Source: a virus
Lineage: Duplodnaviria; Caudoviricetes
DNA length: 64,000 bases
Direction: 5' to 3' (one strand)
Virus record (IMG/VR): IMGVR_UViG_3300028886_000088
Location: 5,339 to 69,338 of that record
Part shown: piece after piece, positions 310 to 64,000 of the stretch
Position numbering within the stretch: the stretch's first letter is position 1
Layout: each line of letters begins with the position of its first letter
Made by a program: the position numbers and the translations under genes
Notes under the pieces: generated by a model
Told to the model about the DNA's origin: nothing
Database searches by the model: none
The model's input: the letters and a program-made list of their open reading frames with translations, nothing else

Positions 310-555
310 TTGAATTTTAAAACACAAAAAAATAATATGCATAATGAAAATAATATAATGGCATATAGAGAAGAATTAATACAACTTTCTGGGCAAATAA
401 TAAACGGAATAATGTCAGCAGACAATTCAATTATGACCAAACTAGTGGATAGAACATTACACGAAGAAACAGCAAAAAACACTGTTGAATTAGCACATAA
501 AATATTAAAAGAAGGAACTATATACTTGTTGACTCAAAAAATAAATAACAAATGA
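310..555 (+). CDS. hypothetical protein whose 3' end is interrupted by the mini-element
   Basis: Removing 513-758 restores ...LAHKILKEIDKKNEAS* (stop at 784-786); the present tail (GTIYLLTQKINNK) is read from the TIR. Confidence 0.65.
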   Translation: MNFKTQKNNMHNENNIMAYREELIQLSGQIINGIMSADNSIMTKLVDRTLHEETAKNTVELAHKILKEGTIYLLTQKINNK

Positions 556-750
556 AAAAAAAAAATGAAAAATATTTAATTAAAACTTGACTTTTTTTAA
601 TTCATCGTGATATTTATTTATTAAATAAACAATGAATTAAGGCCCGTAGGGAAGCGGGTTTAAGGACGGTGAGGGCAATGCCATTAAGCACCCGATGAAA
701 CGTCAATATAGCAAATCCTCGTTGGTTTAGTCAACAGGTATATAGTTCCC
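513..750 (+). mobile_element. 238-bp non-autonomous TIR element (MITE/MIC-like) carrying only a TnpB omegaRNA
   Basis: TIRs 513-534 (aggaactatatacttgttgact) and 729-750 (agtcaacaggtatatagttccc), 20/22 complementary; exact 8-bp direct repeat ttaaaaga at 505-512 and 751-758. Confidence 0.9.
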
Positions 751-770
751 TTAAAAGAAATAGACAAAAA
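640..770 (+). ncRNA. TnpB omegaRNA, orphan copy; scaffold ~643-750, guide from 751
   Basis: 102/108 nt identical to the RNA downstream of the tnpB at 63488; ATATTTAT motif at 610-617 upstream and a terminator downstream. Confidence 0.8.
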
Positions 771-2988: not shown

Positions 2989-3456
2989 TTGTTGTTGGTT
3001 GAATCAATATCCCGTACACTTTTTTGGTGTACGGGATATTTATTATATATTATATGTTCAATTATGAAAAATGGTTTGATTTTGGAAATGGTTATAGATT
3101 CAGTTGTCAAGAGCGTATTAAAGGAAATTACTGACAATGGCAATGGTATTGACAAGATACAAGAATTATATAGGGAAATTGAAAAGTTGTTATATTTTAA
3201 ATGTAGTGATTGGCATTATTGTCACTTGAAATACAATTGGGAAAAATACATCAATTCATTGAGAGAGATTCCAATTAAATTATTGGGTGATTATTCAACG
3301 GACATTGAAACACGTAGGTTTGTAAGGAAATGTTCAAAAATTGATTACCCTATGTCTTTGAAAAGCAAGCACATATCACAAACAGAAATGGCTAATGCTT
3401 TGAAAGGTGTCTTGAATTATGCTTATAAGATATATGGTGATTACATTAATAGTTAA
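2989..3456 (+). CDS. hypothetical protein (probable ATG at 3064)
   Basis: 155-aa ORF followed by a terminator-like hairpin. Confidence 0.55.
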   Translation: MLLVESISRTLFWCTGYLLYIICSIMKNGLILEMVIDSVVKSVLKEITDNGNGIDKIQELYREIEKLLYFKCSDWHYCHLKYNWEKYINSLREIPIKLLGDYSTDIETRRFVRKCSKIDYPMSLKSKHISQTEMANALKGVLNYAYKIYGDYINS

Positions 3457-3752
3457 AAAAAAAATGAACCCAATATTTGGTTCATTTTTTTATATTTCTT
3501 TGTAATTTTATTTTATAACTACAGCATAGACCATTCTAAAAGTTTGCAACCGAAATTTGATACCTTTTTTCGTGCTTTGTCAATTTTAAATTCTTGCATC
3601 ACAATTAAGAGTATTGAAATGACAAATGCAATTGGTAGTGCGATAATTTGTTTAAGCAGATACATATTGTTTGAAATTTTTAAGTTTTTAGATTTGTGGT
3701 ACAAAGATACACAAATTACATAAACCAACAAAATTTTTCTTGTTAAAAAAAC

Positions 3753-4502
3753 TTAAATTTCTTTTATTGTGAATGTTTCTGTGTCCAATTCATATGGTTT
3801 GCAATTGTCAATCATTTTGCAATTGTCGAATTCAACGGCATTTCCGTAGAGTATTTCATAATTCTTTCCGTAATATGCTTGTAATGTATGACCGAATATT
3901 TGCTTTATGTTAGCAAAATCTTGTTCCTTGTATTCAGATTGCATTTCATTTACATCAGCCCAAATGCAAGAACTGTATTGGTCATAGCCACCCCTATGAT
4001 AAGAAATTTTAAACAGTTTTTTCAAACCTTTGGATGAATCCAATAATGTATTTATTTCATCTGCGATTTCTTGTAGATTCAAGTTTTTAGTTTCAAGTTC
4101 ATTGTCAAACCAAGTGAACGTAACTCCAGCGTGAGTAAACAATATATCATCAATTACATAAGCCAATTGAAACAAATCCCTATTGTCATTATATAGTTTA
4201 TGTATTTCATTGTGATGCTTTTTTGAGTGTCTTGAATGATATGGATTCAAACGATAATATTCTTCTGAGAAATATGGCATACAGTGATTTCCCAAAAGAA
4301 GAATAACTTTATCGGGATTATTTTTCTTTAACTCAATGATTTTTTTCATATTTTCAATTGCTTGTTCAACTGTAATATGTTCAAAATCATATGGGTCAAC
4401 ATAATCTCCAATGAAAATAACCTTGTCATATTGGTAAATGTTCTGACAAGGTTTTTCCCAAAATTTTCTTCCGTGTATATCTGGTAATAATAATACTTTC
4501 AT
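3753..4502 (-). CDS. calcineurin-like metallophosphoesterase
   Basis: DIHG, GDYVD, GNH, FTHAG and FGHT motifs. Confidence 0.9.
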   Translation of the reverse strand: MKVLLLPDIHGRKFWEKPCQNIYQYDKVIFIGDYVDPYDFEHITVEQAIENMKKIIELKKNNPDKVILLLGNHCMPYFSEEYYRLNPYHSRHSKKHHNEIHKLYNDNRDLFQLAYVIDDILFTHAGVTFTWFDNELETKNLNLQEIADEINTLLDSSKGLKKLFKISYHRGGYDQYSSCIWADVNEMQSEYKEQDFANIKQIFGHTLQAYYGKNYEILYGNAVEFDNCKMIDNCKPYELDTETFTIKEI

Positions 4503-5615: not shown

Positions 5616-5803
5616 AAAAAAAATGAAACTATATACTAGTTGACACTGCAATTGTTTTTATACAAAATTTAAAAAAATGGCATTAGTTGGATTTAAAAAA
5701 ATTTACTGATGCCATTATTAACAATAATTAACGATTAATATTTTGTTTTTTTTTTATTTTTTTATATATTTGTAATCATAATAAACATTTAATAACTGAA
5801 AAT

Positions 5804-38614: not shown

Positions 38615-38740
38615 TATTATTATATTATATTAGGGAACTATATACTTGTTGACACCAACAAGGTATATAACTTACTGCTTCATAGGGTTCGTAGCCTCTT
38701 CCCTCCACAGTCTCTGAATCCCGCTTCCCTACGGGCTTTT
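38615..38740 (-). ncRNA. TnpB omegaRNA; scaffold ~38735-38633, guide from 38632 leftwards
   Basis: cccgtagggaagcggg 5' hairpin, ctgtggag...atgaagcag core and 3' hairpin ending TAGTTCCC, directly downstream of tnpB. Confidence 0.8.
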
Positions 38741-38760
38741 ATTTTTTGTTATTTTTTATC

Positions 38761-39891
38761 TCATTTAACGCCAACAAGGTTTTGCTTGTCAAACGCAATT
38801 TCCTTGATATTAATTGCTGCGTTTATATCTCTATCATGCCTTGTTCCGCATACTGGACATATCCATTCCCTATTATTTAATAATAAGTCTTTATTGATAT
38901 ATCCGCAATTATGGCATAATTTGCTGCTTGGCTCAAATCTACCAATGAACAGCACATTCTTGCCATACCATTCACTTTTATAAGACAATTGTCTTACAAA
39001 CTCGCTCCATGCAGCACCTTGTATCGCTCTTGCAAGACAATGGTTTTGCTCCATTCCCTTTACATTCAAGTCTTCAAGGCAAATTGCATCATAGTTCATT
39101 ACCAAATGCGTTGATAACTTGTGCAATAAATCACTTCTTTTATTTGCAATTCTTCGATGACATCTTGCAATCTTAACCCTTATTTTCTCATGATTTCTTG
39201 AATCGTTCTTGCTTCTTGCAAATGTTTTCTGCAAATGGGCAAGTTTCTTTTGTACATTTTCAATGTATTTTGGGTTTGAGAACTTGATTCCGTTTGACAA
39301 AGTGGCATAATCCTTTATTCCAAGGTCGACTCCTATTGCATTATCCTTAACCAACTTGGTTTTCGTTGGCTTTTGCTTCAAATCATCAACCGTTATAACA
39401 CACCAATATGTTCCGCAATGGTCTCTGCTTACTGTACAAGTGCCTTGCTTGCAATTTGATTGGTCAAATGTCTTATTCTTGCATAACGCCACTTTTCCCA
39501 ATTTTGGCAACTTTACCGTCCAATTTTCAAAATCAAAGTGAACTGAGTTTATGAATTTGACAGAATTTCTTGTAAATTTCTTTGATTTGAATTTAGGATA
39601 TTGTGCTTTCTTGCGGAAGAATGCAGTAAAAGCATTGTCAAGGCTTCTTAGTGATTGTTGCAATGCCTCTGTTGTGCATTCGTTAAGCCATTCGTGGTCT
39701 TGCTGTTGTTTCAACGATGTCAATTCCTTTGCAAGTTGCACATATCCTACGGCTTTGCCGTTTTCCTTGTAGGCACTTGTTTTTGCGTTCAAGCCCCAAT
39801 TATATATATAACGGACACAACCAAAGAACTTTGACAAAAGTTCCTTTTGTATATCATTTGGTTTTATCTTGTATTTGTAGGCTTTAAGCAT
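38761..39891 (-). CDS. tnpB: RNA-guided endonuclease TnpB with an intact RuvC triad
   Basis: KAYKYKIKP HTH, GVDLGIK, CLEDLNV, FEPSSKLCHNCG, CPVCG and HDRDINAAINI. Confidence 0.95.
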   Translation of the reverse strand: MLKAYKYKIKPNDIQKELLSKFFGCVRYIYNWGLNAKTSAYKENGKAVGYVQLAKELTSLKQQQDHEWLNECTTEALQQSLRSLDNAFTAFFRKKAQYPKFKSKKFTRNSVKFINSVHFDFENWTVKLPKLGKVALCKNKTFDQSNCKQGTCTVSRDHCGTYWCVITVDDLKQKPTKTKLVKDNAIGVDLGIKDYATLSNGIKFSNPKYIENVQKKLAHLQKTFARSKNDSRNHEKIRVKIARCHRRIANKRSDLLHKLSTHLVMNYDAICLEDLNVKGMEQNHCLARAIQGAAWSEFVRQLSYKSEWYGKNVLFIGRFEPSSKLCHNCGYINKDLLLNNREWICPVCGTRHDRDINAAINIKEIAFDKQNLVGVK

Positions 39892-39956
39892 GATATTATT
39901 ATCTTTTTATAATAAATATAACATTAAAGCAAAAAATACAGTTTTTACTATAATTA

Positions 39957-40712
39957 TTAATTTTTTTCTTTAACTTTATCCCAAATTGTTTCTCTTATAT
40001 CATTAATCCAATGGTCATCAATTGCTGAATTGATAATTAAATTGAAAAAAATTTCATTTTGTAATTTTTCCGCTTGTTCAATTTCTTTGCTTGATGCATT
40101 TTCATTATCTAATGTTTCTAAAACATCATAATCCACATCACCAATATCGCATAAAATTGGATTATTTTTATTTCTTTTATAAAATTCATTAAAAGTTGTT
40201 TCTTGGTTTATATCATAATCCATAAACTTATAATTGTACCAACATTCTTTTTCTTCGTCTGACAAATCTTCATTTGTTATACATAACTTATGTCCTATTG
40301 ATTCCAACAATTGCTTATAATAAGCGATAAAATACCCCCAGTGTTCATTATCAAAAATCTCATACCACTTCTCTTGTAAAAAGAATTCTTTTGGTGTTAT
40401 CCGTTCACCACCACCGCTAATATTATATCCTTTTTTAATGTTGGTTGAATCATATTCATCAATCCATTTTTTTTCTGCTTCATTTAACAATTTAATCAAT
40501 TTTGTTGGTTCTTTATCCTCAACCTCTATTGTTTCAATTGTTTCTAATTTTGGCTCACCGTATTTAGCAATTGCTGCTTCACACACACAACAATGTTTGC
40601 GTTTTGATGCTCTCATATGTTGATTATGTCTTTCATTTACTGATGTTCTAGTTTGTCCAATATACACTTTGCCGTTAGGATATGTGTATTTATATATAAA
40701 ACCTCTTTTCAT
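39957..40712 (-). CDS. GIY-YIG endonuclease (Seg-like) with an acidic C-terminal extension
   Basis: GFIYKY....KVYIGQT...R...H, E..WI and GYN motifs. Confidence 0.85.
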   Translation of the reverse strand: MKRGFIYKYTYPNGKVYIGQTRTSVNERHNQHMRASKRKHCCVCEAAIAKYGEPKLETIETIEVEDKEPTKLIKLLNEAEKKWIDEYDSTNIKKGYNISGGGERITPKEFFLQEKWYEIFDNEHWGYFIAYYKQLLESIGHKLCITNEDLSDEEKECWYNYKFMDYDINQETTFNEFYKRNKNNPILCDIGDVDYDVLETLDNENASSKEIEQAEKLQNEIFFNLIINSAIDDHWINDIRETIWDKVKEKN

Positions 40713-40836
40713 AAATTTAAAATTAATGTCAACAAGTATATAGTTCCCTTATATTATTTTAAATAAAAAAGGCTGAATATAATAATACAATATTCAGCCA
40801 AAAAAAAACAAAACTATGGAAAAAACATGAACAAAT

Positions 40837-63343: not shown

Positions 63344-63472
63344 GTTTACAATTATATAAAAGGGAACTATATACCTGTTGACTAAACCAACGAGGATTTG
63401 CTATATTGACGTTTCATAGGGTGTCCAATGACATTGCCCTCACCGCCCTTAAACCCGCTTCCCTACGGGTCT
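63344..63472 (-). ncRNA. TnpB omegaRNA; scaffold 63469-63362, guide from 63361 leftwards
   Basis: Downstream of tnpB; 94% identical to 643-750 with a compensatory C-G/T-A pair. Confidence 0.8.
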
Positions 63473-64000
63473 TTATTAATTATTTTTTTATATTCCTATC
63501 AAATTCTGTTTGTGAAGGGCAAAATCCCTTATGTTTATTGCAGCATTAACATCCCTATCATGCTTTTCTCCGCATTTGGGACAAACCCATTCACGGTCAT
63601 TAAGTTGCAAGTCAGTCTTGACATATCCGCATTTGCTACATGTCTTGCTGCTTGGTTCAAATCTGCCAATGAATATCACATTCTTGCCATACCAATCACT
63701 CTTGTACTTCAGTTGCCTTACAAACTCACTCCATGCTGCACTCTGTATGCTGTTGGATAGATGTTTGTTTTTCATCATACCTTCAACGTTAAGGTCTTCC
63801 AAACATATTGTGTCATATTGTTTCGTCAACATTGATGATAATTTATGTAAGAAATCACTCCTGCGGTTTGCAATGTCCCTATGATACTTTGCGACTTTCA
63901 ATCTTAATGCTTCATGTCTGTTGGAATTCTTCTGTGTTCTTGCAAACCTCTGTTGGAGCGTTTTAAGTCTTTTCTTGCATTTTTCCAAGAACTTTGGATT
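63362..64000 (-). mobile_element. third copy of the TIR/TnpB element (partial; other end outside the window)
   Basis: TIR gggaactatatacctgttgact at 63362-63383, omegaRNA and tnpB 3' part. Confidence 0.85.
63488..64000 (-). CDS. tnpB: TnpB, C-terminal part (5' end beyond the window)
   Basis: CLEDLNV, FEPSSKTCSKCG, CPKCG and HDRDVNAAINI. Confidence 0.92.
   Translation of the reverse strand, partial: NPKFLEKCKKRLKTLQQRFARTQKNSNRHEALRLKVAKYHRDIANRRSDFLHKLSSMLTKQYDTICLEDLNVEGMMKNKHLSNSIQSAAWSEFVRQLKYKSDWYGKNVIFIGRFEPSSKTCSKCGYVKTDLQLNDREWVCPKCGEKHDRDVNAAINIRDFALHKQNLIGI

Follow-up and report, generated by a model that had tools for sequence, protein, structure and literature searches.

The DNA analysed here is a 64-kb window of a 69,338-bp virus record from IMG/VR, the end of the window being the end of the contig, and the completeness of this contig was estimated by CheckV at about 20%, which is consistent with a rumen phage genome of several hundred kb. 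Between positions 38633 and 40748 lies a 2116-bp unit in which a GIY-YIG-type open reading frame (ORF), a tnpB gene and a non-coding omegaRNA stretch, all on the minus strand, are enclosed by terminal inverted repeats (Table 1). The repeat is the 22-mer GGGAACTATATACTTGTTGACA, which is found on the plus strand at one end and on the minus strand at the other with 0 mismatches (0.00 expected, 100 shuffles), and the 8-mer TTATATTA abuts the outer ends of both copies. A first-pass annotation of this DNA had described perfect 22-bp inverted repeats with an 8-bp duplication outside them, enclosing a GIY-YIG gene, an intact tnpB and its omegaRNA, and all of these features were recovered in the present analysis. 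TTATATTA lies here in low-complexity, AT-rich DNA, and the pair taken by itself would be weak evidence for a target-site duplication; that it is a real duplication is backed by a mini-element on the same contig, which is flanked by TTAAAAGA, and by the 8-bp duplications found at other TnpB-bearing elements and at 21 elements without TnpB.

To see where these ends come from, the repeat was scanned against IMG/VR, which returned 12 loci, and against species genomes, which returned 89 stretches, nearly all of them from metagenome-assembled genomes (MAGs) of Bacteroidales from ruminant and other guts (e.g., Paludibacteraceae and Prevotella). One element with the same ends and the 8-bp duplication AATTAAAA (L003:2822-5154) encodes a 307-residue protein that matched the Pfam families DDE_Tnp_IS1595 (5.4e-45) and Zn_ribbon_IS1595 (1.6e-10), and another on a 412-kb phage contig (L039:3748-6212), whose ends differ from the 21-mer of the window by at most 1 mismatch and which has the duplication AAAATAAA, encodes a second IS1595 transposase (6.6e-44) together with a passenger gene of the BspA type containing leucine-rich repeats (Pfam LRR_5, 1e-56). 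Further autonomous copies with such ends were found on Bacteroidales MAG contigs (L084, L100, L109 and L110), and the inverted repeats, which begin with GG, are common to the transposase-bearing copies. The 21 non-TnpB elements with the same ends show perfect 8-bp duplications, many of these elements being miniatures of 130-240 bp, and other cargo within the lineage includes a small ORF (L002) and cargo without an assigned function (L116, L124 and L151:2375-2803). Because autonomous copies with the same ends encode an IS1595 transposase, the shell can be assigned to the IS1595 family, as the first-pass annotation had supposed, and to a lineage that often carries passenger genes and is common in Bacteroidales and their rumen megaphages. 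The results support the view that the 38633-40748 unit is a non-autonomous member of this family which keeps only the inverted ends.

Two observations on the arrangement of the repeats in other genomes may be added. The autonomous copy in L003 occupies the loop of an inverted repeat that resembles a hairpin (L003:2814-5170; aagcgggt and acccgctt flanking the duplication), which is probably a terminator. On a Bacteroidetes MAG contig (L099:394-889), five repeats in the same orientation and about 119 bp apart form a tandem array, not inverted pairs.

The 376-residue TnpB matched the Pfam families OrfB_IS605 (2.9e-24), Cas12f1-like TNB (1.3e-23) and HTH_OrfB (8.3e-19), and it matched the solved ISDra2 TnpB chains 8bf8, 8exa and 8h1j with an E-value of 1.7e-78. 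The RuvC triad is intact, with D189 in GVDLG, E273 in LEDLN and D355 in HDRD, which by alignment offset correspond to D191, E278 and D361 of ISDra2, and both zinc-finger CxxC pairs are intact as well. Among the relatives in IS1595 shells, tnpB has no internal stops and a ratio of nonsynonymous to synonymous substitution rates (dN/dS) of 0.04 to 0.08, and the gene is under strong purifying selection inside these ends. The 251-residue ORF, which matched no Pfam family at E<=0.01, matched a homing-endonuclease family (4.3e-11) and a GIY-YIG family (4.4e-6) of PHROG, and its tblastn matches, 35-42% identical over a stretch of about 100 residues, were phage proteins annotated as GIY-YIG or homing endonucleases; a GIY-YIG motif can be read by eye at its N-terminus. 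It starts 14 nt to the inside of the far repeat (40713-40748 region), and tblastn found no copy of it in any other fetched locus. Most of the related elements are compact, with a length of 1.35-1.56 kb and tnpB only, the window copy being larger because of the added putative GIY-YIG gene, which appears to be extra cargo inserted between the far repeat and the promoter-like stretch upstream of tnpB. The repeat at 40727-40748 also contains TATACTTG, which is close to the Bacteroidetes -7 promoter motif, and this end might drive transcription inward.

To examine the mobility of the TnpB unit, relatives of the protein at 63-85% identity were collected from viral and metagenome contigs. In the relatives with a long, untruncated 3' flank the omegaRNA always ends in a variant of the repeat (...TATATnnTT[G/C]CC), and most of the TnpB relatives have a matching inverted copy upstream of tnpB. 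Perfect 8-bp duplications were found at nine distinct TnpB elements, the window's included, at nine different sites (TAATATAA, TACCAATA, TTAAAAAA, TTTATGAA, TTTATTTA, TTAATAGT, TATTTTTG, TCAGTAAA and TAGATAAA), to which the mini-element adds its own. The site of the family member L174 is empty in two contigs, each of which carries a single 8-mer, in the context ...TGTCA TCAGTAAA ATAAC... in L159 and ...TATCA TTAATAAA ACAAC... in L173. The comparison shows that the TnpB unit has evidently moved as a whole with 8-bp duplications. More distant TnpBs (38-42% identity), including that of Lak-B2 (39% identity), have no such ends. No close relative was found among GenBank phages, where the Lak megaphages matched in only a part of tnpB, with a DNA identity of about 68%; at the repeat-bearing bacterial MAG loci neither TnpB nor omegaRNA was found, and the search of species genomes for close TnpB relatives gave only proteins at <=48% identity. 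One locus (L147:463-4247) carries an IS1595 transposase gene at 1862-2851 on the minus strand (4.3e-44) and tnpB at 3001-4128 on the plus strand, the two genes being divergent with no repeat between them; omegaRNA and repeat are normal at its near end, while about 2.4 kb away, near 463, the far end is legible only as a degenerate repeat. This single case is probably an autonomous IS1595 element carrying TnpB.

Past its stop codon, tnpB is followed by a conserved non-coding stretch of about 125 nt that extends as far as the outer edge of the near repeat, and in an alignment of 23 omegaRNA sequences the conservation reaches the last base of the repeat; between the mini-element and a third copy on the contig (see below), the similarity ends at the outer end of the repeat, two chance Ts excepted. 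The omegaRNA matched no Rfam family. Its stem 1 (GCCCGU...GCGGG) shows compensatory changes from A-U to G-C (12 versus 10 sequences), and the terminal stem was assessed by single-sequence folds, by the left end of the element as a control, and by the duplex energies with own and other repeats. On the 3' side of an invariant GAA (in ...CCCTATGAA...), every RNA folds with the repeat as the 3' arm of the terminal stem, and the mean fold energy was -9.9 kcal/mol for the RNA-side end in comparison to -5.5 kcal/mol for the other element end at equal length. The upstream arm gave a mean duplex energy of -9.4 kcal/mol with its own repeat variant in comparison to -6.1 kcal/mol with other variants, in 20 of 22 cases the own repeat paired more strongly than the other variants did on average, and in a permutation with 12 representatives the sum of the own pairs beat all but about 1 in 10,000 (p ~1e-4). 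Because the similarity of the omegaRNAs stops at the end of the repeat and the repeat pairs into the last stem, the guide is predicted to consist of the duplication and the flank behind it; the folding results support the repeat being scaffold and not guide, and the guide would then begin with the first base outside the element, and hence with the duplication.

A further line of evidence came from the flanks of the 16 elements with a recognisable far repeat, with positions given in the orientation of the omegaRNA. The base before the far-side duplication is A in 9/9 duplicated elements and in 14/16 overall, in comparison to 57% of the non-TnpB elements (both sides pooled) and 3/9 on the mirror side, and the first base past the RNA end is T in 16/16 in comparison to 52% of the non-TnpB elements. 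In the L170-L175 subclade, TCA stands before the duplication in 5/5 independent insertions, and both empty alleles of L174 retain this TCA. Because the signal is asymmetric, a symmetric preference of the transposase is disfavoured, and a one-sided signal abutting the duplication is what a target-adjacent motif (TAM) in the empty allele would leave, which supports a targeting of empty sites. The first-pass annotation had proposed a guide made of duplication plus flank and an A-rich TAM derived from TAAAA and AAATA. The guide agrees, indirectly, with the end of RNA similarity at the repeat, the place of the repeat in the last stem and the one-sided flank signal, while of the TAM the A directly before the duplication is constant but the remainder is not, so that an A-rich TAM finds loose support only.

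The window contains other copies of the repeat, at 513-534 (+), 729-750 (-) and 63362-63383 (+), each with 2 mismatches, in line with the earlier report of the same repeat at 513/750 and 63362. The mini-element at 513-750 comprises both repeats, a stretch like that upstream of tnpB, an ATG, and then only omegaRNA (about 632-750); it looks like a guide-RNA-only derivative produced by internal deletion, which would need both the transposase and the nuclease in trans. The third copy is cut off by the end of the contig inside tnpB, so that its far end lies beyond the contig; its TnpB has 63-67% identity to all other TnpBs compared, constituting a second tnpB lineage, and its omegaRNA is of the mini-element type. 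The contig appears to carry three predicted flank-derived guides and two TnpB lineages. The assembly break inside the tnpB at 63491-64000 was probably caused by the repeated element. Neither a partner repeat nor an omegaRNA was found at the degenerate site at 5624-5645. In another locus (L001:2896-3016, the same as L007), the second omegaRNA type of the window and the repeat stand directly after a 305-residue repeat-rich phage ORF, and neither tnpB nor a far repeat was found at this stranded guide-RNA end.

Table 1. Features of the 38633-40748 element and of the other repeat copies in the window.
Feature	Position	Strand	Remarks
Mini-element, 238 bp at 513-750, with duplication	505-758	+	TTAAAAGA at 505-512 and 751-758
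Degenerate solitary repeat-like site	5624-5645	+	3 mismatches; intergenic
Target-site duplication TTATATTA, omegaRNA side	38625-38632		minus-strand reading is predicted guide nt 1-8
Terminal inverted repeat, omegaRNA-proximal (right end in tnpB orientation)	38633-38654		0 mismatches; same ends on L003 and L039
Predicted omegaRNA scaffold, between the tnpB stop and the outer edge of the repeat	38633-38760	-	conserved in 23 relatives
tnpB, 376 aa	38761-39891	-	Pfam domains, intact RuvC triad, zinc finger
Short spacer 5' of tnpB	39892-39956	-	resembles, by eye, the conserved promoter-like stretch upstream of tnpB in L146 and L147
Putative GIY-YIG-type homing-endonuclease ORF, 251 aa	39957-40712	-	PHROG matches
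Terminal inverted repeat, far (left end in tnpB orientation)	40727-40748		0 mismatches
Target-site duplication TTATATTA, far side	40749-40756		identical 8-mer to 38625-38632
Third copy	63354-64000	-	repeat 63362-63383, omegaRNA 63362-63482, C-terminal 170 aa of tnpB 63491-64000

Based on these results, we consider it likely that the element is a non-autonomous IS1595 unit carrying tnpB, its omegaRNA and a GIY-YIG cargo gene, which takes its guide from the flank and homes into empty alleles. The ends would be recognised by an IS1595 DDE transposase acting in trans and encoded by an autonomous copy, either at another place in the phage or in its host, and this enzyme would insert the unit with duplication of 8 bp of AT-rich target; insertion with such a duplication is shown by the anatomy of the element and by its relatives. 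Transcription of the omegaRNA would proceed in the direction of the near end, with the inverted repeat as the 3' arm of the last scaffold stem, and by continuing into the flank it would provide a guide made of the 8-bp duplication and about 8-12 nt of flanking sequence. In an allele free of the element, such as that of a related phage infecting the same cell, the target would be preceded by the left-flank bases as TAM, and TnpB may cut this empty allele so that recombination with the filled allele copies the element in. The filled allele would be protected because the repeat end TTCCC stands in front of its full target and because, at the second copy of the duplication, the match gives way to the repeat after only 8 bases. 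A mini-element consisting of the ends, the promoter-like stretch and an omegaRNA of the second lineage could borrow both the transposase and the nuclease. Going further, one may picture an OMEGA system refitted to a DDE transposon in which target choice became unlinked from the TAM, with the repeat serving as the last stem and the duplication as the guide seed, TnpB-driven homing between co-infecting phages amplifying only those insertions that landed beside a TAM (A or, in one subclade, TCA), the miniatures parasitising both enzymes, and the GIY-YIG gene stacked on top; this fuller picture is put forward tentatively, as a possibility which in our judgment falls a little short of an even chance.

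Several results weigh against this account. No IS1595, Y1 (Y1_Tnp) or serine (Resolvase) transposase was found on the 69-kb contig, or about 20% of the genome, which fits the earlier description of the copies here as non-autonomous, and it is because the contig lacks a transposase that we can only infer mobilisation of the 38633-40748 unit in trans. The earlier expectation that empty alleles would collapse to one 8-mer was borne out for the family member L174; for the copies in the window no empty allele turned up, as a search of IMG/VR for relatives of the two neighbouring genes gave no close relative and an exact empty-junction scan gave no match; exact empty-junction scans for L151 and L160 also gave no match. 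Six of the 16 elements compared have no duplication (L146, L152, L153, L156, L016 and L170) and in L171 it matches at only 7/8 positions, so that missing or imperfect duplications need secondary rearrangement as an explanation. The flanks of the window's own elements, TAAAA and AAATA, have only the final A in common and do not amount to a clear TAM; TCA, as seen in L170-L175, is missing at the mini-element. As for the omegaRNA, RNAalifold on a MAFFT alignment recovered only stem 1, the 3' region being rich in length variation, and the evidence for the terminal stem, drawn from folds of individual sequences and from duplex energies within a set of relatives, is supportive only; both the guide and the place where the omegaRNA ends are predicted. 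The six elements without a duplication do have recognisable inverted ends, and recombination between copies is a possible cause; in L153 the flanks prolong the inverted symmetry instead of duplicating (TTTTTTTA and TAGAAAAA).

The same anatomy could also exist without TnpB driving the homing of its carrier, if the nuclease were selfish cargo retained on other grounds, for instance because it cuts competing phages or host DNA that happens to match the flank, or were on its way to a regulatory or exapted role. It has been argued that DDE cut-and-paste elements gain less from restorative homing (PMC13565253), the window's own copies lack a consistent adjacent TAM, and a second, putative nuclease of the GIY-YIG homing-endonuclease type is present within the same shell, all of which would suit such a role. 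The catalytic triad is nevertheless intact and dN/dS is only 0.04-0.08, the omegaRNA has been kept to the end of the element and appears to have co-evolved with the repeat, the one-sided flank signal abuts the duplication as would be expected for an empty-site TAM, and guide-only miniatures make sense only if a flank-derived guide is in use; we therefore regard TnpB without a part in homing as unlikely.

The position of the guide admits another reading, in which the scaffold stops short of the repeat and it is the repeat that serves as guide, so that TnpB would target IS1595 ends, in excision of or competition with related elements, and not empty sites. The repeat has a typical guide length of 21-22 nt, adjoins the conserved scaffold and is constant across copies, as a guide of this kind should be, yet it is predicted to be base-paired with a partner strand that varies with the repeat variant, as in a scaffold stem; moreover, each copy would contain its own target, and a signal at a fixed distance 8 bp beyond the far end would have no role. 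This reading was rejected on the predicted element-specific pairing of the repeat in the terminal stem, and we hold it to be very improbable. Least credible of all is that the unit is an ordinary tnpB-only element of the IS200/IS605 (IS1341) type with inverted ends arisen by chance, or a tnpB trapped between two miniature IS1595 insertions, though solo tnpB genes are common in IS1341-type elements and many miniatures with these ends exist. The ends match at 22/22 positions with identical 8-mers outside both, and distant TnpBs (38-42% identity) have no such ends. A classic IS605, IS1341 or IS607 element was rejected on the inverted ends, the 8-bp duplications and the absence of Y1_Tnp and Resolvase matches on the contig, and two independent mini-insertions on the recurrence of the whole unit at nine sites, each with its own duplication, and on empty alleles that lack the entire unit. 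The flank-guided, homing IS1595 unit is thus the account that we prefer.

In comparison with known systems, the element shares features with several. Elements of the IS200/IS605 family have subterminal hairpin ends with no inverted repeats and make no duplication, and their TAM is the target site of TnpA; tnpB elements of the IS200/IS605 and IS1341 types, and non-autonomous derivatives of them that bear guide RNAs, were reportedly described by Meers and co-workers in 2023. The nuclease fold, the catalytic triad and the omegaRNA at the 3' end of tnpB are the same here as in IS200/IS605 and IS1341 elements, and, as in IS200/IS605, the predicted guide is the right-end flank and short derivatives keep the RNA and lose the gene; the key differences are the inverted repeats, the 8-bp duplication and a TAM that would be uncoupled from the target choice of the transposase. 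IS1595 elements with passenger genes are known, as are transposase-less cassettes between the ends of such elements (mobile insertion cassettes). Like these, the present element has GG-initial ends and an AT-rich 8-bp duplication, in a lineage with varied cargo and many miniatures, but here the cargo is an RNA-guided nuclease of which the RNA is predicted to be functionally fused with the transposon end.

The principle of TnpB on DDE transposons was already published in 2023. The main text of Altae-Tran et al. (2023, PNAS, PMC10691335) describes six DDE-associated TnpB branches (DDE-1 to DDE-6), in all of which inverted terminal repeats occur and tnpB lies no more than 250 bp from an end, as well as solo TnpBs with ends matching transposase-bearing copies; it names IS630, and IS1595 has 0 occurrences in it, a count that covers the main text, while the supplement could list IS1595. 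As in those branches, TnpB lies here between symmetrical inverted DDE ends with the 3' end of tnpB <250 bp from the element end, the difference, as far as that text goes, being that the partner is IS1595 and that a variable 8-bp duplication would supply guide nt 1-8. A 2026 review (PMC13565253) gives ISL2, IS630 and IS1031 as partners of TnpB and does not name IS1595, and a literature search for TnpB together with IS1595 found no paper linking them. The novelty that the first-pass annotation had claimed for this end type in a phage is thereby narrowed, as the principle is published, even if the main text of the 2023 paper makes no mention of IS1595; what is added is a different DDE family with a long, variable duplication.

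Another close parallel is offered by Fanzor1 and Fanzor2* (Yoon et al. 2023, NAR, PMC10711439), in which inverted repeats and duplications lie within the guide-RNA scaffold and the reads in a virus genome run about 15 nt beyond the element. Both cases concern a nuclease of the TnpB family in a non-autonomous transposon with terminal inverted repeats and target-site duplications in a large virus genome. Fanzor elements are, however, eukaryotic, and their duplications are short, largely fixed and absorbed into the scaffold, whereas the present case involves a typical bacterial TnpB in a Bacteroidales phage and a duplication which, because it is 8 bp long and variable, cannot be scaffold. No link between Fanzor and Merlin was found in the literature.

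In general, with this analysis IS1595 joins the few DDE families described as carrying TnpB in prokaryotes, and this clade offers small TnpBs (375-376 residues) with several natural scaffold variants for practical use. The element would be a compact bacterial-virus counterpart of the Fanzor elements, with a transposon end doubling as guide-RNA scaffold. Since IS1595 makes a long and variable duplication, the choice of insertion site and the TAM need become separable, and the insertion site of the transposase is set apart from the TAM of the nuclease, two things which coincide in IS605. This raises the testable question of whether homing by TnpB selects which insertions persist, and the giant rumen phages are a natural setting for comparing many independent insertions, along with guide-only derivatives, autonomous partners and empty alleles.

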